Of a stretch of DNA of 64,000 bases, positions 3,769 through 29,480 are shown in pieces. A program made the position numbers and the translations under genes. The stretch spans positions 1,949,275 to 2,013,274 of the forward strand of contig MU004234.1 in the NCBI GenBank assembly GCA_010405405.1, given 5' to 3'. Below the pieces are notes generated by a model. The model was not told where the DNA came from and did not search any database. It saw nothing but the letters and a program-made list of their open reading frames with translations. The stretch comes from Microthyrium microscopicum. Lineage: Eukaryota. The stretch's first letter is position 1, and every line of letters begins with the position of its first letter.

Positions 3769-6700
3769 ATGTCTCCTACACATTCCAGTCTACCTTTCAA
3801 CAAGCCAGTATCGCTCAAGCAGCTCGATACTGGCAAACCCCAATATGTCACCTCTCAACTTCTCGCCCAGCAGGTAGCATATCTTTTCTCCGATAAAATC
3901 TTCACATACTCTCCAGACACATTCAACCTCGATGTCGCCTTACAACAATGGAACTCGGAAGACCAACAAAACACCTTTGGCTTCGTCCCAAGCGTCCAGG
4001 CGATGCAAACTCGACTCGGTGCCGGCTCCGCCGCTCTTGGATATATCTTTTCCTCAGACTTTGATATGAACAAGCGTCATGTTCCCCAATCAATAATAGC
4101 GTCTTCGGGAAGTTTGTTAGCGTTGCGAGGAATGCTGGATGAACTTTCGTTGTTGCATCAGTTGACCAACCCTTTCACTGCACATGTTGCTGCTGTTGAA
4201 TATGTGGCAAGTCAAGGTCTGGTGGCCGATTACTTGAAGCCAATGCAAATTGCAGACGAGTTGGGATTGGGATTGGTTGCCAGCATTTCAGCTCAGGATG
4301 CTCAACACATGGCTCTATATGCAACTGCCCTGGGAAGCGTACTACCCACTCTACATGTTTATGACGGTATTTCTGGTCAAGACACTGTTGAAGCAAAGGG
4401 AATTCTTGGAAAGAGCAACTTGAACAAGGCTTACGGATATCTCCTGGACGTAATCGAGAAGAACAATCTGGCCAAGGCGGATTACGAGCAAAAGGCAATC
4501 GTTACATTGCAAGGACTCAACAAGGTGCTGAAGACCAAGTACGAGCCTTTTGAGTATACTGGCCATGCTCAAGCCGAGCGGGTTTTTGTCACCTTCGGAT
4601 CCAGGGAAGCTGCAATCACCAAGCAAATAGTTGCAAATTTGTCCAAAAATGGTGCCAAAGTTGGTGTCGTCAATGTTCGTGTCTATCGACCATTCATCGA
4701 GGACAAGTTTCTGGAAACTCTTCCAAAATCTACCCAAAGCATTGAAGTTCTTGGCCAGGTTGATGATGAAGTATTGGTCCAAGATTCAGATTTCCACTCG
4801 ACTTTGTATCAAGACGTACTTGCAGCCTCCTTCACCAGTGACTTGACCGTCAATGATCTAAAATACCCAAAGCATCAGGCTTGGGGCGATGCTGAATACG
4901 TCAAGCTCGTGGAAGTGATTTCTGGATCGCCTGATCATGAGCTTACGCCGAATGAAGGCGTTCTTCAGGCTTCCATCTGGACTTTGGACAACTCACCTGT
5001 TGGAAAGACCGATACTGACATTTTCACGTATCTCACCAAATTCAAAGGGGGCCGAGTACATATTCGCAACACTCATGACAATCTCGTTCAAGGCGGTGTC
5101 TCTCGTACAGACATTGCCATTGGATTTGGGAAAGCAGACGAGATTACTGGACCATTCGCCGCAAATATAGCCTATGTTGGATCTGAAAAGATTTTGAGCG
5201 AAGTCGATGTGCTGCAGAGTGTCCGAGCAGGCGGAACAGTTATACTATCGCTTGCGGGAGTTAAGGATGAAGATTTGGAGAAGAAACTGCCGGAGGTTGT
5301 CCGGAACACCATCAGAAGCAAGAATCTCCGTCTAATCGTACTCGATTCAGCCGATGCCGCCATTTCTGGGGATGCCAATATCGAAACCTCAATCGTGCAC
5401 GAAACCATTCAGGATATTCTTGTTTCTTCACACAAGTCAACTGCAGACGCTGAACTGCGTGGCGGCCTTCGCCTAGTTGCGGTTGCAGAAGACTGGGAGA
5501 TTGTCAGCGAAGATACTAAGAAGATTTCGCTGAGATCAGCGCTCAAGCAAACGTCCTTCGCTCCATATGAACAGGTTGCAGATGATACATCCTCACTTCT
5601 CGAGGACTGGATCAAGGCTGCTCAGGGGATCGTCTTCAAGGAAGTTTATGATACCAAGGTATCTCTGCATCCGGAGGCAGGTGTTAAGACGTCGGTCGTT
5701 ACGGTCAAGGAGCATCGTCGGTTGACTCCAATGTCGTATGAACGTAACGTCTTCCATATCGAATTTGATTTGGGTGACTCGGGACTCACCTATGCCATTG
5801 GTGAAGCTCTTGGTATCCACGCTGAAAATGATCCCACCGAGATCCAAGAGTTCATCAAATGGTACGGCCTCAACCCGGATGAGATCGTCCAAGTTCCTAG
5901 CAAGGAAGATCACTCCATTCTCGAGAACCGCACCGTCTACCAAGCACTTATCCAGAGCGTCGACATCTTTGGCCGCCCACCAAAGCGCTTCTATGAAGCG
6001 CTTGCCGACTACGCCACCAACGAAGACGACCAAAAGAATCTCCTCACCCTCAGCACTCCCATGGGTGCCACAGAATTCAAGCGTCGCGCAGAAGTAGACA
6101 CTATCACCTTCGCCGACATCCTCGCCGAATTCCCATCCGCGCACCCAGAATTTCAAGATCTCATTCGCATAGTGTCACCCCTCAAGCGCCGCGAGTACTC
6201 CATCGCGTCCAGTCAACACGTCACACCCACTTCCGTCGCCCTCCTCATCGTCACCGTCAATTGGAACGACCCCAAAGGCCGCGACCGCTTCGGTCTTGCC
6301 ACACGCTTCCTCAACAACCTGCGTGTTGGTACTCCCGTGACCGTCAGCGTCAAGCCATCCGTCATGAAACTGCCAACATCCACCACCGCGCCAATCCTCA
6401 TGGCCGGTCTCGGCACCGGACTCGCACCCTTCCGCGCTTTCGTCCAAGAACGCGCCTACCAAAAGCAAGTCCTCAAGCAGCCCATCGGAGCCGTCCTCCT
6501 CTATCTAGGCTCACGACACCAGCGTGAAGAGTATTTGTACGGTGAGGAGTGGGAGGCGTATCAGGCGGCCGGTATCATCACGTTGATTGGCAAGGCGTTT
6601 AGTCGCGATCAGCCACAGAAGATCTATATCCAGGATCGTATGCGGGAAAGCTTGGAGGAGATTAGACAGTCGTATCTACGAGATGATGGTAGTTTCTATC

Positions 6701-6855
6701 TATGTGGGCCGACGTGGCCGGTGCCAGATGTCACGGAGGTTTTGGAGCAGGCTGTGGTGGAGGAGTCGAAGAGCAAAGGGGTGAAGAAGGTTGATTCTAG
6801 ACGGGAGATTGAGACTTTGAAGGAGGCTGGGCGCTTTGTGTTGGAGGTTTATTAA
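3769..6855 (+). CDS. MET10: Sulfite reductase [NADPH] flavoprotein (alpha) subunit
   Basis: 1028-aa ORF with a PFOR-like N-terminal region (VNVRVYRPF), FAD-binding domain (RREYSIASS) and NADPH domain (MAGLGTGLAPFRAF, FYLCGPTWPVPDV, C-terminal VLEVY). Confidence 0.95.
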   Translation: MSPTHSSLPFNKPVSLKQLDTGKPQYVTSQLLAQQVAYLFSDKIFTYSPDTFNLDVALQQWNSEDQQNTFGFVPSVQAMQTRLGAGSAALGYIFSSDFDMNKRHVPQSIIASSGSLLALRGMLDELSLLHQLTNPFTAHVAAVEYVASQGLVADYLKPMQIADELGLGLVASISAQDAQHMALYATALGSVLPTLHVYDGISGQDTVEAKGILGKSNLNKAYGYLLDVIEKNNLAKADYEQKAIVTLQGLNKVLKTKYEPFEYTGHAQAERVFVTFGSREAAITKQIVANLSKNGAKVGVVNVRVYRPFIEDKFLETLPKSTQSIEVLGQVDDEVLVQDSDFHSTLYQDVLAASFTSDLTVNDLKYPKHQAWGDAEYVKLVEVISGSPDHELTPNEGVLQASIWTLDNSPVGKTDTDIFTYLTKFKGGRVHIRNTHDNLVQGGVSRTDIAIGFGKADEITGPFAANIAYVGSEKILSEVDVLQSVRAGGTVILSLAGVKDEDLEKKLPEVVRNTIRSKNLRLIVLDSADAAISGDANIETSIVHETIQDILVSSHKSTADAELRGGLRLVAVAEDWEIVSEDTKKISLRSALKQTSFAPYEQVADDTSSLLEDWIKAAQGIVFKEVYDTKVSLHPEAGVKTSVVTVKEHRRLTPMSYERNVFHIEFDLGDSGLTYAIGEALGIHAENDPTEIQEFIKWYGLNPDEIVQVPSKEDHSILENRTVYQALIQSVDIFGRPPKRFYEALADYATNEDDQKNLLTLSTPMGATEFKRRAEVDTITFADILAEFPSAHPEFQDLIRIVSPLKRREYSIASSQHVTPTSVALLIVTVNWNDPKGRDRFGLATRFLNNLRVGTPVTVSVKPSVMKLPTSTTAPILMAGLGTGLAPFRAFVQERAYQKQVLKQPIGAVLLYLGSRHQREEYLYGEEWEAYQAAGIITLIGKAFSRDQPQKIYIQDRMRESLEEIRQSYLRDDGSFYLCGPTWPVPDVTEVLEQAVVEESKSKGVKKVDSRREIETLKEAGRFVLEVY

Positions 6856-14048: not shown

Positions 14049-14167
14049 ACGTACGGCCATAGGTCGAAGAATACAAGGCGTCCCGTCCGCTCCGCCCTAT
14101 TTAAGCTTCGAACCGGTAGATTAGTATTGCGGTGGGTGACCACGTGAGAATCCCTACTGCTGTACGT
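14049..14167 (+). rRNA. Dispersed 5S rRNA gene
   Basis: 119 nt. Terminal helix ACGTACGGC/GCTGTACGT, conserved TCCCGTCCGCTC, TTAAGC, TTAGTA and GGTGGGTGACCAC..GAATCC. T-rich terminator right after; TATA-like at about -30. Confidence 0.95.
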
Positions 14168-15612
14168 TTATTTTTTGCCTTTTGATGATGTTTTTTTTGC
14201 TTCATAACTTCATTCAATTGTTGTTGATGTTGTATTTTGGAGGTAGAGAATACCTGAAACGATCTGATCGGAAGGATTCGCTTTTTTGCTGGGATTGAAA
14301 TCCTTCTATATACAAGGGAGAGTACTATTACCCACAAAGTTGGGCTCATGTCTGCCAACCCTGTCGTTCATCCATTTACGGTACTGTACTTATGCTTCCA
14401 GGTACAGAGCAACAGGCTTGATTGGTCGCAATTCTCCATCAAATCAGCAATCCAGGCGCTGAACGCCACTCTTTTCCGGCTTGTGGGCCTTGTGGGCTCT
14501 GATTTCGTGTTTGCGGGCGGCGGCGCGAGCCTCCCGTGTCTTGCGCCAACTCCTTTCCCTCTGAAGATAACATTCGACGACTAAGTTATCAGAGCACCCT
14601 CTTCTGGTACTGAAACTATCACCTAGCCATCACTCTATCTCGATGTCCAATTTTGTTCCGTTCATATTGCAATTGTCGGTGCCGTGGCTGTCTAGACCCT
14701 GATGGCCATTGGATGAGCAAACCCCGAGTTACAGCACGTCGCGTGAGCGATACCTTACTATGTACCTATTCAAACAAACGGATAGTTTACATGCGCTTCT
14801 ACGCTCCTTTACCCTAAAGTCGAACGTTGGTTTCGTTATTCAGGTAGGTATGACCTTATCACTGGCTCTAAAAGGCTGTCATAGGCAAATAGTCTCAAAT
14901 TCCAGAAGCTCGATCACACAACTTACATAATGACCGCCTCAACCGACCACCAACCGCTTCATGGCCTTCAATAGGATTGAAGCGGCCTCAGCCCAGGCAG
15001 TCTCGAACTGTCATTGGTATGGGGTAGGAGCATGTTCGATGGCAGTATAAGCTTTCAGCCTCGTCGTCAGCTTGAAGACAAGACCACTATAATCTTGTCA
15101 TAAGCCTGGTCATTTTGTGACGCTAATAGGCTTTTTTGCTTGTTTCTATATGCGAAACTCCATGCAATACGGATCCTACATGCGGCCTCGTCGATATCGG
15201 CGATTGCCATCAGCCTGATCAGTTGAGCCGCAAATATGAGGGCGCAACTGGGCCGGCCAGTGGGAGCCAGCGCTTCCAGGTCGCATTTCAATCGAGCAAT
15301 AGTGTCCTGCAGCCTCTTCTGAAAGTTACCGAGAATCATAAAAGAGGCAACGAAATCGAACCACCGGCCACTTTTCTCCCCCTCTCTGGGCGCGAACAAG
15401 CCCAGCTGGTTGGTCACCACACCTTCAGTAGGCTTTCCGAGATGGACAGCCAGAAATGGGCCTCCAGCCTCACAATTATGGTCGCGTTCCTATTTTGCGT
15501 CATTAAAGCAGATCTTCGCTATTGAAAGGAACGCAAGATCATACTCTACTTCTTCTTCAAAGCTTTGAACGTTTCACTCCATATCACATATTGCAAGCTG
15601 GTCTCCGTTGCC

Positions 15613-21059: not shown

Positions 21060-22857
21060 TCAAAGATAATACATGAAATCGGGATGCTCTTCGTTGATTT
21101 CTTCAACACCTAGAGCTCTCTTCTCTTTCGCCTCCTGAGATCCTTGAGTGGCCAGTTTCTTCGCATTCTTCCACATCAGTACTCGAATTTGAATACCAGA
21201 AGCAATCACCCCAAACACCATCATCCCAAGAACAAAGCCATGGCCCGCGTAGTAATGTGGTGGACCGTTGTAAGCTTTTTGACTTGCGATCGCAAAAACC
21301 TGTCCGATCATTGATGTTAAAGCGTACAAACTGGCTCTGTTCCTGATTAGCACGTGTACACCCACCAGTGCCTGTCCATACCTTTTGGTATATCCTAGGA
21401 TATTGCTGGCAAACCATACTTGATAGAGGACCGTGGTCGGGAATGTGCCGATACCAACGAGAAAGACAGCCGTCAGCCCTGCCCCTTTAGATGGTGCGGT
21501 AAGAAGCACTATATAGCCAACTGAAGCAATTGTAAAACAGAGCATTATGAGCCAGCCGCGCTGCTTCAAGCGGTCCGACAGCAAGCAGCAGCCAATAGTC
21601 ATGACACCTGTAGCGACCCATACTGGAATAGTAAGAAGATTCGTGCTCAGGGTTGAATAGCCGAATTGCTTTACAATCACAGGCAAAAAGGTACTGAACG
21701 CACCTATCGAAGCATTCGTGGCACAGGCTATGACAACATATCTGATTTTGCTGGTTAGGTCTCGTCTTGATCTAAATCATCGGTGGTCAACTCACATCCA
21801 ACAGGAAGGATCTTTCAGTACTTTCCAGATGTGTCCAGGCCGCACTTTGGCATCACCAACTACGTTGAACGCTTCGTTGTATCTTCGAACCGCCATTTCA
21901 CGTTCCGCGACACTGAACCCTTTCCTGAACTTGTCAGGAGATGCTGGAAGACAAAAGTGGATAATTGGAGCAAAAGCTACCGCCATCAGACCTAAATTAA
22001 GTTAATAGTCATGAAATGTGTTGAGGACTTTTTGAATATAATAACTTACCTTCGATCAAGAAGACCCATCTCCACGCTAACCAGCCGCGGACATTGTTAA
22101 GATTCTTGACGATGCCATAGCCAAGTATGCCATTAAAACTTCCAGAGAGTGCAGTGACAGCATAGTAGATTGAGCCTCGCGTGGCCAACTCATCTCTTCG
22201 GTAGAGAAAGGTCAAGTACAGAGTTGCCACGCTGTTAAAAGCTTCCCCGGCGCCAATAAGGACTCTAAATCCAGCAAGAGTTTCCCAATTCTTTGCTGTG
22301 CACATTCTAGTTATGATTAGCTCAAGTCCATATCGCCATATAAGAGGACTGACACTGTAGTGAAGGTTCCCCAAACAACCAATGCCAGAGAGATTTGTGT
22401 ACCCGCTGTTATCCTCTTTAGGAAAAGACTGGCAGGAAATTGTAGGAGCAAATGCCCGACATAGAAAACTGCCGAGATTGTGCTAAGCTGATCAGCAGTT
22501 ATATTGAGCTCTTCTTTCAATCCCGCGTTGTATGCATAACCGATGTCTCCCTTGTCCTAGCAAACTGTTAGTATCATATTTTTTGATTGAGACTTTTGAA
22601 AGGAAGAAGGAGAGCGTGAAGAGATAGCTTGTACTAACAAGGGAGGCTAAAAATGTGGTCATGCTCAACAGAGGCAAGATCATGAAGTCGATTTTCCTGA
22701 CCAATTTCTTTTCAACCTGTCTTTGCTCTGGCGTACGAGTTGTTTCAAAGTGCTTGAGAAAGCCATTGGAACTATCGTTGTTTTCGGATTGTACAGGAAA
22801 TAGTTCAATATCTTCCAAGTCATGCACAGATGTGATAGTGTCTGTAGAACCAGTCAT
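21060..22857 (-). CDS. MFS transporter, anion:cation symporter (Dal5/Tna1-like) family
   Basis: EKKLVRKIDFMILPLL, DKGDIGYA, YRRDELATR, GWLAWRWVFLIEG, C-terminal HPDFMYYL; several introns. Confidence 0.9.
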
Positions 22858-24491
22858 ATTTGCATAAAGAAATTTGACCTAAAAAAACAACAAAAACTTG
22901 ATCTATCTCCAATAAGATATGGCTGCTTTATGTAACACAATGCGGAAAACTATATATCAATTGACTAGGGGTTGATTTACTCAACAACCTCTTTTCTCTC
23001 TCAGTTGCGTCACTGTACCATTTGGCGCCAGTCAAGGTACTCCGCGATCTAACATGTATGTAAGCATTAAAGCTAAGCCCCTGAAGCGCTGTCACTGGCC
23101 TGATAGATGAACATCAAGAGATGCTTGGGCTTACATGGCCACGTACTTCTGAGAAACACGACTCGGGGGATCAATTAGGCAACCGCGAAAAGTTGAACGG
23201 AGGCTGAACAATCGAGGCACGTTCTAAGTAACCTGTACTCGGCGTAATTCTTAGAATGTAACCAAGACGCGAGAATTGAGTGGTGATATTGAAGCTTATA
23301 GAGCGTCAAGAAACAATAATGAAGTACTATTTACTACTAATTGGGCGCATTACTGGGTTATAATTGCCTCTTATTTGTCACAGCCATAGAAAATTGACAT
23401 TGAAAGAAATTTCAAAGTTTTCTTGCAATTCCCATTGTCGGTTTTGACTAGTACAGAAGAACATGTTGATAAAGTTCGGTCTACGCACTCAACCAGCATT
23501 ATTCTACATGATGTATGTCTTGAATTACTACATATTAGACGGAATAATGGGCATTGTCAAAGGGAGACTGGCATGACAAGTGAAGTTTTCTGTCACTAGC
23601 AAGTGTCTGAGCTTAATTCGCATTTTGCTGATCTTATTGTTTGAATGAATGGACAAGAGATTGAGAATCCGGTCTGTGAAATAATGTGTAAATGGCTAGA
23701 TCGGTGAGGCTCGTAGCGGCTTAACTACTTCGGGTGGGGATCGATTCAAGGTATATTCTTGGGACCTCTTTTCCATCCCTAGCATTAAATATCTGACGCG
23801 TAATGGTGTTTTTTTGGTCTGGTTGATGAAACAAGGAGGAATGTATTGTGCATTTAGGCAACAGCCTATCTGCGTCCTCAAAATTGATTGTAGAGTTACC
23901 AGCAACGTGAAAGCCTGATTATGAGATATGGGAAAGTAGTATCGAGAATGCTTTATCTGATTTTACTTAGGTGTCCAGGTATAGACGGTCTACAAGTAGT
24001 CTCATTTTCTACTCAGATCTCTAAACATTCGAATAAATTACCCCTTGAAATTGGATATCGATCCTCTCATGACAAACTGAGGCACAAACCGCCCACAAAA
24101 GGCGTAAATACACTACTAGTACCTTATTCTTTAAGTCGGTAGGTATCCCTTATATGTCTGAAATAAGGTCCCTAACGTAAACAGGTCAAATTCTTCTCCT
24201 ATTCTCGGGGAGAAGTATGGCGTCCGTAGATAAATAGGTAAAGTTGTTACAAATAATGTAGTGAGTGCTACATACACAGTAATACTTTATATTGAAAAGA
24301 GGCTCGTAGACTTCCAATTGATAATAGTTGGAGTAGAAAGAGAATAATACAGGAAAGATAGTTTGATAGGGTGGGTAAATAGTGTATATAATATAAACAA
24401 AAACAGCAAAATTTTGGTTCATATTGTTCGTTGAAAGTACACTTTAAACGTCAGCTTTCTTGGTCTAGTCGGTTATGACGTCGGTCTCATA

Positions 24492-24520
24492 TAACCACAT
24501 GATTGCGTTTAACGCAAGCT
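24492..24520 (+). other. Canonical tRNA (TSEN-type) intron at position 37/38, 29 nt
   Basis: Starts one base 3' of anticodon CAT. Contains ATGA complementary to the anticodon loop and the inverted repeat TTGCGTT-T-AACGCAA. Confidence 0.85.
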
Positions 24521-24551
24521 ATCCGAAGGTCGCCAGTTCGATTCTGGCAGA

Positions 24552-24603
24552 GTAAGTTCTATCAAACAACTGATTTGAGTGCTTTATCTAACGATTTCAC
24601 TAG
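24552..24603 (+). other. Spliceosomal-type (U2) intron inside the tRNA-Met acceptor stem, 52 nt
   Basis: GTAAGT donor at 24552, CTAAC branch at 24588-24592, TAG acceptor at 24601-24603. Removal gives AGAGAGC-A, which pairs fully with GCTTTCT. Confidence 0.85.
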
Positions 24604-24625
24604 GAGCATATATCAAAGCAATTTG

Positions 24626-24634
24626 TTTTTTTTT
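24626..24634 (+). terminator. RNA polymerase III terminator (T9) of the tRNA-Met gene
   Basis: First run of four or more T downstream of the tRNA start, 17 nt after discriminator A73 (24608). Confidence 0.8.
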
Positions 24635-25599
24635 GGTCTTTAGAGTACGGTAGTCTCTAGAGTCTAAATACTGGTAGGTACATGGCAGTACATACCGGTA
24701 GCATCCTCCCCTTCGCAGTGCAGGGGCCAAACATCTTGATAGTAACAATCATGAGGCTCCTTACTCTATTATAGCTTTTAGTACCTTAACAGTTCTCTTA
24801 ATTTTGTGGATTTGCTCTGAGATAAGCTTGACCCCCCAATAACACTGTAGTAAGCACAAGGTTACGCTGACTCATTTACCCATTTTCGCTGTTTTCGACA
24901 ACCTCACCAGCAAGGACCAGCGGTTCAGCGTGTATGATAGGTTATTTTCAGCCATTTATGCGCCATGGATCTCATTAACTGGACCCTGACAAGGATGCGG
25001 TGTTAACAACCGAGATCTTTTACACTTTTACACGTTGAGAACGTGAGTCGCAAAAGCGATCTGCATGGGGCATTTCCCGAATTATCCGCTGCTTCATGAG
25101 TAAACCCCTCTGCGAACTACTCTCCTCCGTGACTCCATCCCTCATCTTGACCACATAGATTTTCCGTTTCTTATTGCTTGCGATTCGTATGTGTTTTGAC
25201 TTTCTGTCGTACTCTTATTTCCTCAGGAACCGCTTGTGACACAGACCTGCTCTTGCCGTATCACCTCTCTCCTACTCCGTACCCCACGATCAAAGACCTC
25301 CGATATCTTGCACCCATACACAACCACTTAGAAATAGTTTATCGACCTTGAGGGGCAGCCAATCCTACACTCAGCTATCCTGAACTCCTGCACTGATACA
25401 AGCTCTTTCATCGCTTGTGTATTCCTCAAAGCCCCACTATCCTCCGGGGATATCCGCACGGTGGCCGCGATCCAGACTTACAACCTATCGCCGTTGGAAG
25501 CGCTCATCATCCATTAAATGAGAGCTTGACATCAGTGGCAGATTTGTTAAACTTGAAACCTAAGGTTATCACTATCAAAAGAATTGCTGTCACGTCGCC

Positions 25600-28500
25600 A
25601 TGGGACCCGATGCAGTTCGTGAGAGAGACTTGAATCGGTAAGCTTGCTAATCACTCGCGTGAAAGGCACAACATTTACACACTTTCCAGATACTACCAAC
25701 CGTATAAGAATGCTCAATCCCTCAAATCCTACTCCCCTGCCGTAACTCCGGAGGAAAATCGGCACAATTCCCTCTGGTCAATTATTCCAGAAGATTACAA
25801 ACCACAGTTTAGTTCAGATCGAGCTCTTACAGCTTTTGCCCAGCTCGCAACTTTACGCCTGGGAGTAAGAAGATGTATAGTATCGCTCATAGACTCGAAG
25901 AACCAATACATCTTGACAGAGGCGACTCGAACACTAAGTCTCTCTCGGCACACCATCGACAATGATGATGACAAAGTCTGGCTCGGAAAGAGTGTTCTCA
26001 ATCGTGGCGATGCCATGTGCGAGAACGTTCTGGAAACTACATACACCGCGTACGACGAACAGGGTCGCCCATATACTGGAGATGGCCTGGTAGTCGAGGA
26101 CATGACTAAGGATGACCGCTTCAAAGACAAGCCTTTTGTCCTTAACGAACCATGCATTCAATTTTACGCAGGCGTGCCCATACGCTCAAGAAGTGGTCAT
26201 ACAATTGGATCATACGCATGCTCACATAACAAGCCACGACCTGGGGGACTTACCCTCGAGGAATTTCGCTTTATGCAGGATATGGCTGAAACAGTGATGG
26301 ACCACCTTGAGATGCTCCGCGATCGTGAGGATAGAACCAAGGGAGAGCGCATGATTCGAGGACTTTCCGAGTTCATAGAAGGCTCATGCGCTTTGGGACG
26401 TCCAGCCCCGAGTCAACCGAATAGCTACGCTACAAAATTAGCTCCACTGAACGGTACTCCGACCACTGCCGTCAATACAGTCTTAAACCGCCAGACGGAA
26501 AACCTGAGGACCTTGGAGGATGACTTGGAAAGTCCTCCAGCTTTAGTAGACACAGATGGTCCAAGTAAACTATCAGGACCAAAGGCTACCAAAAGAGTCG
26601 TGCAGCCTCCTCCATCAAACCCTACATGTATCTTCTATCGGGCTGCTGATCTGATCAGAAAATCTACATATGCAGATGGTGCCGTGTTCTTCAGGGCAAT
26701 AGGACCGACTCTACGAGCAAAGATTCCCGATAAGAATACTAGCAGTGATGAAACATCCTTCGATGACTCGCAGTCTGGGACCTCCGGCAGTGAGACTATC
26801 CTCTCTTCTGCAAGTGGCAAGCCTGTGCTATCAAGAGGACCTCGGTTCACTACTCAAAGGCCGAAGAAGATTAAACCTACGGAGCGCGAGGAAGTGAAGC
26901 ACTGCGAGGTTTTGGGTCTCTCAATATCCGAGAACGCTCCTGGAGAAGACAGTTTGGGAGTCAGGGACTTTCAATTCTCGGAACGCAGCATGGAGAAATA
27001 CATAAAAAAGTTTCCGTACGGCAAGTTCTTTAGCTTTACTGAGTTCGGATCTGGTGTTTCTTCTGGCGACGACAAGTCTGAGCACGAACCCCAATCTACG
27101 GAACCTGCAAGTAACGGCACGATAAACGGCCACAGGTTATCAAATGAAGTCGTCAAACCAGGTTCGAAGAAGAGACAGAGTTTTTTGCCCACTGAGCTTT
27201 TAAAGATTCTACCAGGAGTTCGAACATTAATATTCTTACCCCTTTGGGATCCAGCTGCTGAGCGCTGGATTGCTGGTGGCTTTATCTGGACAAGCAAAGC
27301 CGGTGCTTTACTGAGTCCTCACAATGAATTGCCATATTTGAAGGCATTTGGAAACAGCATTACCAGCGAGTATGCTCGAATGAATGCATTGATTTCTGAC
27401 AGAGCAAAGTCAGACTTCATCTCCAGTGTAAGTCACTCAATTTCTTTCAAGTTTCAGTAACTAATTGCTTGTATAGATCAGCCACGAGACTAGATCTCCG
27501 TTACACGGCATCCTTGGTTCAGTCGAATTCCTTCAAGAGACTGAGTTGAGTCAATATCAAGCCGGACTCGTGACTTCGGTCAACACGTGCGCCAAAACTT
27601 TGCTGGAAACGCTCGAATCTATACTAGACTATTCCAAAATCAACAAACTATATACTCGTGATCGTAATCAAAGACGCCTCGAAACACGATTGAAAAAACG
27701 GGATACCGAAAATTCCATCATGGGACCTGCTGCTGATGTGGACTTGCATCAGCTTCTCGAAGAAGTGGCGGAGTCTGTATGTGCCGGGCATGCATTCAGG
27801 GAGACCCATAATACCGGTGCTGGATATCCCACAGAAAATTCGAAAACGCCAGATAGCGCCTGCAACCTTCGGCACGTCGCTGTGTCGCTGGAGATTGCTC
27901 CAAAGATGAAGAATCTGGTCAGGACCCAACCTGGTGCGATACGCAGAATTGTGATGAACTTGCTAGGCAACAGTCTCAAATATACTCAAAATGGATATAT
28001 CTCAGTTGTCATGAAGGCCCAACAATCGCCCACGGATCCTACTATGGCTGATGTTGAAATGACGTTTGCGGATACTGGAAAGGGCATGTCTCTTGAGTAT
28101 CAACGGACACGAATGTTCTCGCCCTTTTCACAAGAGGATCCGTTCGCAGATGGAACAGGTCTTGGCTTGTCTATTGTACGCCAAATTGTCGATTCTCTCG
28201 GAGGACATATTGATATTTGCAGCACAAAAGACGTCGGTACAACTGTTGACGTTCATCTTACTCTTCCCTTGCCAGAAAATCTCCCGGCGGATGAGTTTAC
28301 TGAAGTCTACAATATGGCGAAGGGTAAGAAATTATCTCTGGCTGGCGCAAATGCCTGCCCAAAATACCTTGGTCCTTGCCTAAAGGCCCTCCAATGCAAC
28401 ATAGAAGAGTGGTTTGGCATGGAGCTTGTACCATGTCCGGATAGTTTTGACACTATCAATGGCGATGCTGTAATCTGCCATGAGACTCTCCCCGATTTCA

Positions 28501-29480
28501 ACAAGATGACTTTACAAGGAGCTCCTCTGATCGTCGTCTGCAAGAACCAGTCGAACCAGGTAGCACTACGAAAACATCTGCTTGCTACACTACCACAGTG
28601 CGCGAGAGCCAATATACAAATTGTGGCGCAGCCTCTTGGTCCGCAAAAGCTCGCTGGTGTTCTCAAGAACATATTCACAAACACACAGACCATAATGCCA
28701 CACCCCAAGGCACCTATATCGCCGCCAGCTTCGCCCAAGAAGGTTCAGTTTCTTGATCCAATCACCGAAAGCACCAATGCCCTTGGGGACGATGCTCAAC
28801 CACCCCGCCCAGGACCGGATCCTATTCCAAATGAGAAGATGGTCACAGAGGAGCATCACAGCTCAACTGCCATAGGTGAGCCTCCCAAGCGAGCATCAAC
28901 AGAACCAGTCTCGAACAAGGAAGCTCCACCACAACAACCCAAGCGACCCGTCCCGATCCGTTTCAAGAGCGGCCTGCACCATGACAATCCACCTGCCGCC
29001 CATCATGTCCTCTTAGTCGACGACAACGCCATCAACTTACAACTACTCACCATGTTCATGCGCAAGATCGCTCTGCCCCACGCCTCTGCGCGGGATGGTC
29101 TCGAAGCCTTGAATAAATACAAAGATTGTATAGCGTGTCTCGGCGACACCAACAACAATAACGGAGAAACTAACGATGAAACCAACGGAGCCACTATCGA
29201 CGGAGCCAACGGGACCACACAGCAAAATGGTGCAGCCAAACCGCCATCAGCATTCACGTATGTTCTCATGGACATCTCCATGCCAGTAATGAATGGCCTA
29301 GAGTCAACGCGGCGGATTCGCGAGTTTGAGCGCGAGCAGGGGCTGAAGAAGGCGATTATTGTGGCACTTACTGGGCTGGCGAGTGCTGATGCGCAGCAGG
29401 ATGCGTTGGATGCGGGTGTGGACTTTTATCTACCGAAGCCAGTGCGGTTTGCGGATTTGAAGAGGTTGATGGGTTTGTGA
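25600..29480 (+). CDS. Fungal hybrid histidine kinase (GAF - HisKA - HATPase - receiver)
   Basis: N-terminal DRALTAFAQLATLRL..QYILTEATRTLSL, GAF (FYAGVPI), H-box ISHETRSPLHGILG, N-box NLLGNSLKYT, DTGKG, GTGLGLSIV, receiver VDDNAIN..MDISMP..KPV. Introns near 25638-25689 and 27427-27476. Confidence 0.93.

Follow-up and report, generated by a model that had tools for sequence, protein, structure and literature searches.

A tRNA-Met(CAU) gene with two introns of different kinds

The 64-kb window (i.e., the whole stretch of DNA that was analyzed, 64,000 nt in length) carries an elongator-type tRNA-Met(CAU) gene at positions 24454-24608 of its forward strand, and this gene contains two introns of different kinds. 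The intergenic spacer around it measures about 2.3 kb, with an MFS transporter gene on one side and a histidine-kinase gene on the other. The first intron occupies the canonical place in the anticodon loop and was delimited according to the 37/38 convention; ARAGORN sets it one base further to the right, with an unchanged length of 29 nt. The second one directly follows tRNA positions 66-68 (A, G, and A, at 24549-24551) and thus splits the 3' strand of the acceptor stem. The coordinates of all features are collected in Table 1.

Re-reading of the sequence confirmed the coordinates that the first-pass annotation of this region had given for the insert, its GTAAGT, CTAAC, and TAG signals, the GAGCA segment, and the T9 run. 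The same annotation had described a complete cloverleaf running through the T arm. The elements of this cloverleaf are indeed intact, but they are not continuous, as the 29-nt anticodon-loop intron had been overlooked.

Table 1. Features of the tRNA-Met(CAU) locus (positions refer to the window).
Feature	Position	Strand	Content and basis
TATA-like A/T element	24385..24398	+	56-69 nt before the first tRNA nucleotide; read from the sequence
Spliced RNA contig, extent	24442..24869	+	376 nt; contig ends are not transcript ends
Exon 1	24454..24491	+	5' acceptor strand, D arm (A-box region), 5' anticodon stem and loop to position 37; ARAGORN after in silico splicing, Rfam RF00005 alignment
Canonical anticodon-loop intron, 29 nt	24492..24520	+	37/38 convention; ARAGORN and Rfam
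Exon 2	24521..24551	+	Position 38, 3' anticodon stem, variable loop, T arm (B-box region), acceptor positions 66-68; ARAGORN, Rfam, homologue alignment
mRNA-type GT..AG intron, 52 nt	24552..24603	+	Between tRNA positions 68 and 69; GTAAGT, CTAAC, TAG; skipped in the RNA contig
Predicted branch-site motif CTAAC	24588..24592	+	Branch A at 24591; sequence motif
Exon 3, GAGCA, 5 nt	24604..24608	+	Acceptor positions 69-72 and discriminator A73; completes 7/7 acceptor pairs
3' trailer (17 nt) and T9 run, candidate Pol III terminator	24609..24634	+	T9 at 24626-24634

The interrupted gene escapes the standard search tools, as had been anticipated. ARAGORN, with introns allowed or not, called no tRNA in the unspliced window or in the segment 24400-24700, and the Rfam tRNA model, applied to the whole window at its gathering threshold, passed the locus over. 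The unspliced locus DNA itself scored 36.1 bits with this model (RF00005), with non-standard pairs flagged in the acceptor stem. After in silico deletion of 24552-24603, ARAGORN called a 74-nt tRNA-Met(cat) with 7/7 acceptor pairs (one of them G-U) and the discriminator A, which is the restoration that the first-pass annotation had predicted.

Initiator tRNA-Met is distinguished by A54, A60, and the A1:U72 pair. The ARAGORN drawing of the spliced molecule presents the features of an elongator, namely the T loop TTCGATT (with T54 and T60) and the G1:C72 pair. The sequences of the D and T arms fit the A-box and B-box regions, respectively, and the T9 run lies 3' of exon 3, where it is the sole T run of at least five residues within the 1.2 kb between 24000 and 25200; the sole RNA contig of the locus reads through it. 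We regard the locus as a nuclear gene for elongator tRNA-Met(CAU), the product of which would be a functional tRNA. The source fungus can be placed in Ascomycota; for sulfite reductase, its best named relatives, which are Dothideomycetes, showed 54-57% identity. The TATA-like element may, judging by its sequence, constitute an upstream promoter element. A motif ATATAAT is present at a similar upstream distance in a homologue (L001, see below), and the region preceding a 5S gene within the window includes a TATA-like element, at a distance of about 25-31 nt.

The 52-nt insert opens with GTAAGT (24552-24557), in agreement with the fungal 5' splice-site consensus GTRAGT, and it ends with TAG. The distance from the predicted branch A to the 3' end of the intron is 12 nt, the range for the 10 intron-like matches in the window being 8-15 nt. 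These 10 matches (43-96 nt long) were obtained with the strict motif GTAAGT..CTAAC..YAG in the 64-kb window, compared to a mean of 0.4 and a maximum of 3 in 50 first-order Markov simulations, and therefore the splice signals exceed chance. The match in the tRNA gene is positioned exactly where its deletion restores the acceptor stem, and its length may be compared with the 52 and 49 nt of two RNA-confirmed introns of a neighboring gene. The insert thus combines the attributes of a U2-type GT-AG intron, i.e., a GTRAGT-type 5' site, a CTRAY branch motif, a YAG end, an appropriate size, and excision in RNA (described below).

The first-pass annotation had adduced the lack of any T run longer than T3 as an argument related to Pol III transcription; this argument carries little weight, since T4 or a longer run occurs in only one of the 10 intron-like sequences of the window. 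The minimum-free-energy fold of the unspliced precursor was uninformative (z-score -1.29). Searches of the remaining part of the 64-kb window for copies of the intron, the tRNA halves, or the flanks yielded chance matches only (up to 16 nt), and for a near-identical copy of the 52-nt intron no match longer than 13 nt was found there.

Excision of the 52-nt intron in RNA

The crucial evidence comes from sequencing run X5, in which a 376-nt contig (mean word depth 25.1) joins position 24551 to 24604, i.e., it skips exactly 52 nt with GT..AG borders. The two sides of the joint, 110 and 266 nt long, are locus-specific and contain no other letters and no gaps in comparison with the window; the position of the junction carries one letter of ambiguity. 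The earlier proposal, that the insert is an mRNA-type intron excised at GT and AG, was thereby supported. It should be stressed that the contig gives neither the ends, nor the strand, nor the abundance of the transcript. X5 was taken as RNA because two GT..AG introns of the neighboring gene are spliced out in its 8.6-kb contig (25636 joined to 25689, and 27427 joined to 27477). The evidence for excision accordingly consists of one contig, from one RNA-type run of one study, whose RNA nature is deduced from the spliced neighbor, the index label of the run being a guess.

The anticodon-loop intron (24492-24520) is retained in the junction contig. The 52-nt intron is therefore excised precisely from an RNA that still carries the canonical intron, which means that the two introns are removed separately, the GT..AG one first. 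This order fits with the action of a nuclear spliceosome followed by tRNA splicing.

The junction contig also passes the T9 run and continues for 235 nt, up to position 24869, which would not be expected of a Pol III pre-tRNA; the molecule could therefore stem from low-level transcription by Pol II or from read-through. No open reading frame longer than 38 aa was found in the spliced RNA. Within run X5, RNA cover was absent in 23000-24183, 24382-24441, and 24870-25146, and the depth equaled 25 at the tRNA contig vs. 1005 at the neighboring gene.

Related genes and the interpretation of the locus

A scan of metagenomes with a 21-mer common to the interrupted and uninterrupted forms of the gene returned 22 loci. 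Three of them (L001, L009, and L019) are fungal homologues, and the remaining 19 are unrelated (17 resemble other uninterrupted tRNA genes and two are unclear); a second intron-bearing copy was not present among the 22. As expected, prokaryote contigs scanned for the T loop followed by the 5' splice site gave no matches. In all three fungal homologues the tRNA is devoid of the GT..AG intron, and anticodon-loop introns are located at the same place (33, 31, and 31 nt in L001, L009, and L019, respectively). The mature tRNA shares 70 of its 74 positions with each of them, and the four differences are two compensatory swaps, in the pairs 2:71 and 3:70, which read C2:G71 and U3:A70 in the present gene and whose 3' partners (positions 71 and 70) lie within the 5-nt exon 3. 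On this sequence comparison, the GT..AG intron is a putative lineage-specific one, without a counterpart in the three related genes.

In our view, the best explanation (with a probability of about 0.7) is that this elongator tRNA-Met gene has two introns, the usual anticodon-loop one and a 52-nt mRNA-type one, and that the latter is excised by the spliceosome, so that a mature tRNA is presumably produced. Transcription of the precursor, by either Pol III or Pol II, would extend across the two introns and exon 3. GTAAGT, CTAAC, and TAG would then be read by the spliceosome, whose joining of position 68 to 69 would complete the 3' side of the acceptor stem. This joining would have to come before RNase P, RNase Z, and the CCA-adding enzyme find a normal acceptor stem to work on, and the anticodon-loop intron would be removed afterwards by the tRNA-splicing endonuclease and ligase. 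The anatomy of the gene and the joint in RNA are observed, whereas the spliceosome as the cutter, the order of the later steps, and the mature functional tRNA are inferred, and either polymerase may make the productive precursor.

The alternative that deserves the most attention, although we consider it rather unlikely, is that the locus is a disabled copy, i.e., that an intron-like insertion killed one of several tRNA-Met genes and a weak Pol II or read-through RNA is spliced there incidentally, without yielding a functional tRNA. The passage of the contig across the T9 run and its low depth relative to the neighboring gene are what such a copy might present, the intron is missing from all three related genes found, and uninterrupted elongator tRNA-Met genes beyond the 64-kb window may make this locus dispensable. 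However, the cloverleaf, the canonical intron, and the discriminator are all intact, and the mature sequence departs from its relatives by compensatory pairs only. Moreover, a random insertion would hardly bring GTAAGT, CTAAC at a 12-nt distance, and TAG, all placed so precisely that their removal re-forms 7/7 pairs, and the T9 run follows exon 3 rather than the T arm.

It is highly improbable that no splicing took place and that the genome of the RNA-run strain simply lacks the 52 nt (a presence/absence polymorphism). The uninterrupted state does exist in nature, as the three related genes exemplify, and the DNA used for comparison comes from a sample other than the RNA-run strain, which is represented by RNA only. 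Yet the X5 contigs, covering about 3.4 kb including non-coding flanks, match the window without other letters or gaps, and therefore the two strains must be nearly identical; in addition, the 52 nt absent from the contig are bounded precisely by GT and AG, as are the two neighboring introns skipped in the same run.

Even less credit can be given to the idea that the insert is a non-canonical tRNA intron, cut by the tRNA-splicing endonuclease via a bulge-helix-bulge-like fold, with GT..AG being coincidental. Acceptor-stem introns of the bulge-helix-bulge kind are described in Archaea (according to PMC3978253). When the criterion was defined as two 3-nt bulges with cut sites, a 4-bp helix between them, and flanking helices, the insert reached at best 6/8 pairs, a score equal to the mode for 2000 random position pairs (a scale without a positive control, on which the canonical intron of this gene scores only 5). 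Apart from this, the insert carries a complete set of spliceosomal signals, and the canonical intron, which should be a substrate of the endonuclease as well, is still there in the spliced contig.

Finally, a chimeric join in the assembled DNA, a possibility already raised by the first-pass annotation, can be practically dismissed: in the DNA runs X1, X3, and X4 (one sample, not independent of each other and possibly the source of the window) the joint does not occur and contigs of 9-20 kb are colinear with the window across the site, with no differences, and an artefact would hardly carry perfect splice signals honored by an RNA run. DNA contigs lying only partly on the tRNA were not found either; matches shorter than 40 nt may go undetected in such a search, so this result has no bearing on paralogues.

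Comparison with known introns and significance

A close parallel to the spliceosomal intron proposed here for the tRNA-Met gene is offered by fission yeast and other fungi, whose U6 snRNA genes contain an mRNA-type intron (Tani and Ohshima 1989, 1991; Canzler et al. 2016; as cited in PMC5855946). In both cases, a GT..AG intron that is short and has the signals usual in fungi resides in a small structural RNA gene of Pol III-type architecture, and its removal is needed to restore a conserved helix or sequence. On the other hand, the host is here a tRNA, not a spliceosomal RNA, and the rationale of reverse splicing beside the active site, put forward for U6, is not obviously applicable. The tRNA-Met gene additionally requires the tRNA endonuclease pathway, and the Pol III origin of the spliced precursor is only a candidate one.

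Spliceosomal introns are also mentioned for U1, U2, and U5 snRNA, U3 snoRNA, and ascomycete rRNA genes (Takahashi 1993, 1996; Bhattacharya 2000; as cited in PMC5855946), and a further source on such introns in fungal non-coding RNA genes is Canzler et al. 2017 (PMC5832005). Similarly to the 52-nt insert, these are normal spliceosomal introns in fungal non-coding RNA genes, often representing lineage-specific insertions; in contrast to the tRNA, their hosts are transcribed by Pol II or Pol I (or their polymerase is disputed) and do not contain a second intron class. In the accessible text of both sources (PMC5855946 and PMC5832005), tRNA is absent from the lists of non-coding hosts of spliceosomal introns.

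With regard to tRNA introns, the canonical eukaryotic ones at position 37/38 are removed, according to PMC13149111 and PMC12530127, by the tRNA-splicing endonuclease and ligase. The intron at 24492-24520, present also in the three relatives, is of this kind; the 52-nt insert differs from it in its location in the acceptor stem, in having GT..AG borders with a branch site, and in being removed with the canonical intron still in place. Bulge-helix-bulge introns and permuted tRNA genes, reported for Archaea and the red alga Cyanidioschyzon merolae (PMC3978253), share with the present case the breakage of a tRNA gene outside the anticodon loop, including the acceptor stem, and the fact that standard finders miss them. 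Those, however, need an RNA fold and a protein endonuclease, whereas the 52-nt insert exhibits no such fold above chance and carries spliceosomal signals.

In the literature searched, which comprised mostly articles outside subscription journals, we found no description of a spliceosomal intron in a tRNA gene. It seems somewhat better than an even chance that this is the first tRNA needing two unrelated splicing machineries, with the spliceosome acting first (either directly on the product of Pol III, as with U6 of fission yeast, or on a precursor made by Pol II, from which the tRNA is released), and end-processing and the endonuclease/ligase pathway following.

A 2026 review (PMC13149111) describes tRNA splicing as independent of the spliceosome, and textbooks say likewise. 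A working GT..AG intron in a tRNA gene would break this rule, and tRNA would join the non-coding hosts of spliceosomal introns, i.e., U1, U2, U5, and U6 snRNA, U3 snoRNA, and rRNA (as listed in PMC5855946). The locus would also offer a natural substrate for the questions of whether Pol III transcripts besides U6 can be processed by the spliceosome, and how structured RNAs gain new introns. Moreover, it exemplifies a blind spot of annotation: fungal tRNA censuses may undercount such genes, because the one described here went undetected by both ARAGORN and Rfam when default thresholds were applied. If the reading with two machineries is true, a spliceosomal class would be added to the known kinds of tRNA introns, and the fungus would rely on its pre-mRNA splicing capacity for its elongator tRNA-Met.

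Anatomy and detection of the interrupted tRNA-Met gene

Re-reading of the region 24300-24800 confirmed an interrupted tRNA-Met gene, in which a 52-nt insert separates the last five bases from the rest of the acceptor stem, and the coordinates of the first-pass annotation were all reproduced. That annotation had described a cloverleaf complete up to the T arm; the arms are indeed present, but it overlooked an ordinary anticodon-loop intron, seen in both the Rfam alignment (a 31-nt insertion is needed there) and the ARAGORN prediction (29 nt).

Features of the tRNA-Met locus and of other genes in the window
Feature	Position	Strand	Remarks
Sulfite reductase flavoprotein subunit	3769-6855	+	intronless, 1028 aa; protein search
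Dispersed 5S rRNA gene	14049-14168	+	Rfam, 85.9 bits
MFS transporter gene	21060-22878	-	ORF pieces; one side of the spacer
5' acceptor strand GCTTTCT	starts 24454	+	sequence reading
D arm, anticodon arm with CAT, variable loop, T arm with loop TTCGATT	3' of GCTTTCT	+	sequence reading
Canonical anticodon-loop tRNA intron	24492-24520	+	placed by 37/38 convention
A, G, A, first three bases of 3' acceptor strand	24549-24551	+	sequence reading
52-nt insert	24552-24603	+	GTAAGT at start, TAG at end; sequence reading
CTAAC in insert	24588-24592	+	sequence reading
GAGCA	24604-24608	+	directly 3' of insert
T9 run	24626-24634	+	17 bases between GAGCA and T9
Hybrid histidine kinase gene	25147-29480	+	GAF, HATPase_c and receiver domains; other side of the spacer
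Histidine-kinase intron, 52 nt	about 25637-25688	+	RNA-type run; GT..AG cut matches if shifted right by one base
Histidine-kinase intron, 49 nt	27428-27476	+	RNA-type run

Across the whole window, ARAGORN reported no tRNA, whether or not anticodon-loop introns were allowed, and none in 24400-24700 either, as the first-pass annotation had predicted of tRNA finders. After in-silico deletion of 24552-24603, it returned a clean 74-nt tRNA-Met(cat) in which 7/7 acceptor pairs form (one being G-U), along with discriminator A and the canonical intron. At the gathering threshold, Rfam reported only the 5S rRNA gene in the whole window and did not call the tRNA locus; with relaxed filters, its tRNA model matched 24454-24554 (36.1 bits, non-standard acceptor-stem pairs flagged), the sole tRNA-like match across the 64 kb.

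The tRNA gene lies outside any protein-coding gene, in an approximately 2.3-kb spacer. An A/T-rich TATA-like element (24385-24398) lies 56-69 nt upstream of tRNA position 1. Some 25-31 nt ahead of the 5S rRNA gene is a TATA-like element, and a T-rich run (TTTATTTTTT) follows the gene directly; these flanks suggest that Pol III promoters of this fungus are TATA-assisted. The closest database relative of the sulfite reductase was just 62% identical (best named relatives, Dothideomycetes, 54-57%), so that no close sequenced relative is present in that collection; the protein atlas placement was Ascomycota, and the host is an ascomycete.

Splice signals and the junction in RNA

The window contains 10 matches to the strict pattern GTAAGT..CTAAC..YAG (43-96 nt long), compared with a mean of 0.4 and a maximum of 3 in 50 first-order Markov simulations, which indicates that the organism uses such introns and that the 52-nt insert is typical of them. 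The branch A of the insert is placed 12 nt from the 3' end (8-15 nt across the 10 matches). Deleting the insert brings back four acceptor pairs and the discriminator; chance placement of such an element exactly at the stem-restoring site is very unlikely (odds below one in a million, by our rough estimate). The lack of T4 in the insert, previously put forward as an argument for Pol III transcription, carries little weight, since T4 occurs in just one of 10 local intron-like sequences. A search for an introner-like family revealed no second copy of the 52-nt intron within the window.

Words of the locus were found in five sequencing runs. Four, all DNA runs from a single sample, contain all sampled words and may have been the source of the window, while the fifth (X5), from a separate study with a separate organism label and a guessed 'RNA?' label, contained 0.54 of them. 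Contigs of X5 and of three DNA runs (X1, X3, and X4) were mapped to 23000-28000, where the DNA contigs were colinear, with zero joints and zero differences. X5 behaves as RNA, in that an 8.6-kb contig spans the histidine kinase gene with two GT..AG introns skipped (25636>25689, 52 nt; 27427>27477, 49 nt). X5 cover is absent from large parts of the spacer. The histidine-kinase RNA contig begins at 25147, about 490 nt ahead of the first intron. Over about 3.4 kb in total, the X5 contigs never differ from the window, so that partial transcription, rather than divergence, accounts for the 0.54 share.

The predicted junction with locus-specific flanks was found in one X5 contig (record 7; 376 nt, mean word depth 25.1), which covers 24442-24551 and 24604-24869. 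Its joint 24551->24604 skips 52 nt bounded by GT..AG, with 110 nt on the shorter side, 0 other letters and 0 gaps. This exact RNA junction supports the core of the first-pass annotation, i.e., a GT..AG intron in the acceptor stem that is spliced. The contig has no joint at 24492-24520, and thus the GT..AG intron is already out of molecules keeping the canonical one, as expected if two different machineries act, the nuclear spliceosome first.

A Pol III pre-tRNA should end at T9, the sole T run of at least 5 in 24000-25200. Record 7 crosses it and extends 235 nt further; therefore, the molecule may stem from Pol II or read-through transcription, and long-RNA libraries would favour such a product over a 200-nt pre-tRNA. 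The contigs carry no information on ends, strand or abundance, and the spliced RNA contains no ORF above 38 aa. Upstream of the tRNA gene, X5 has a separate contig of low depth (24184-24381, +/-; 198 nt, depth 4.4), and the 60-nt uncovered A/T-rich stretch between the two contigs includes the TATA-like element.

Homologues and origin of the intron

Metagenome contigs scanned with a 21-mer common to the interrupted and uninterrupted gene forms yielded 22 loci, of which three (L001, L009, and L019) are fungal-type tRNA-Met(CAT) genes and the other 19 are unrelated. All three have an anticodon-loop intron (31-33 nt), uninterrupted acceptor stems and T5-T6 runs starting 4 nt past the discriminator. 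The deduced mature tRNA is identical to each at 70/74 positions, and the four mismatches constitute two compensatory swaps (pairs 2:71 and 3:70), whose 3' partners fall in the 5-nt last exon, 3' of the insert. The gene therefore truly ends with this exon. On this comparison, the exon has co-evolved with the 5' acceptor strand (the swaps may predate or postdate intron gain), and the 52-nt intron is lineage-specific, having been gained by a gene that is otherwise standard.

The anticodon-loop introns of the four genes are unlike in sequence and length (29 nt in the window gene vs. 31-33 nt), and each, as judged by eye, has a short hairpin as well as a segment complementary to the anticodon, features typical of eukaryotic pre-tRNA introns. 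A TATA-like element was also noted in L001 (250-256), 63-69 nt upstream of the tRNA; together with that of the window gene, it may represent a conserved promoter element whose upstream distance from the gene is unusual.

Competing explanations and a proposed new intron host

Our confidence is about 0.7 that the tRNA gene is maintained and that the spliceosome assists in its maturation. The main rival left, a dead tRNA-Met copy crossed by a weak Pol II transcript that is spliced by chance, is unlikely, as the cloverleaf and canonical intron are intact, the acceptor pairs are compensatory with respect to the homologues, the splice signals are perfectly placed and T9 stands 3' of the last exon. 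That the strain behind X5 has a genome without the insert, or that the insert is an assembly artefact, is highly improbable even when both are taken together; a genome short of just those 52 nt is unlikely given the identity of the X5 contigs to the window. An endonuclease-cut, non-canonical tRNA intron found no support, its bulge-helix-bulge score (6/8, scored without a positive control) being the commonest value among random position pairs.

A full-text literature search, with most subscription journals outside its scope, found no paper on a spliceosomal intron in a tRNA gene, a silence that is no proof of novelty. Hosts of spliceosomal introns among non-coding RNA genes include U6, U2, U5, and U1 snRNA and rRNA, as listed in an excerpt of PMC5855946, and fungal U3 snoRNA (excerpt of PMC5832005), whereas the acceptor-stem or otherwise ectopic tRNA introns described in the excerpt of PMC3978253 are of the bulge-helix-bulge type, from Archaea and Cyanidioschyzon. 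The intron reported here resembles the former in lying inside a structural RNA gene but differs in its host; maturation by the spliceosome would thus make tRNA a new host class for spliceosomal introns, with consequences for tRNA biology.
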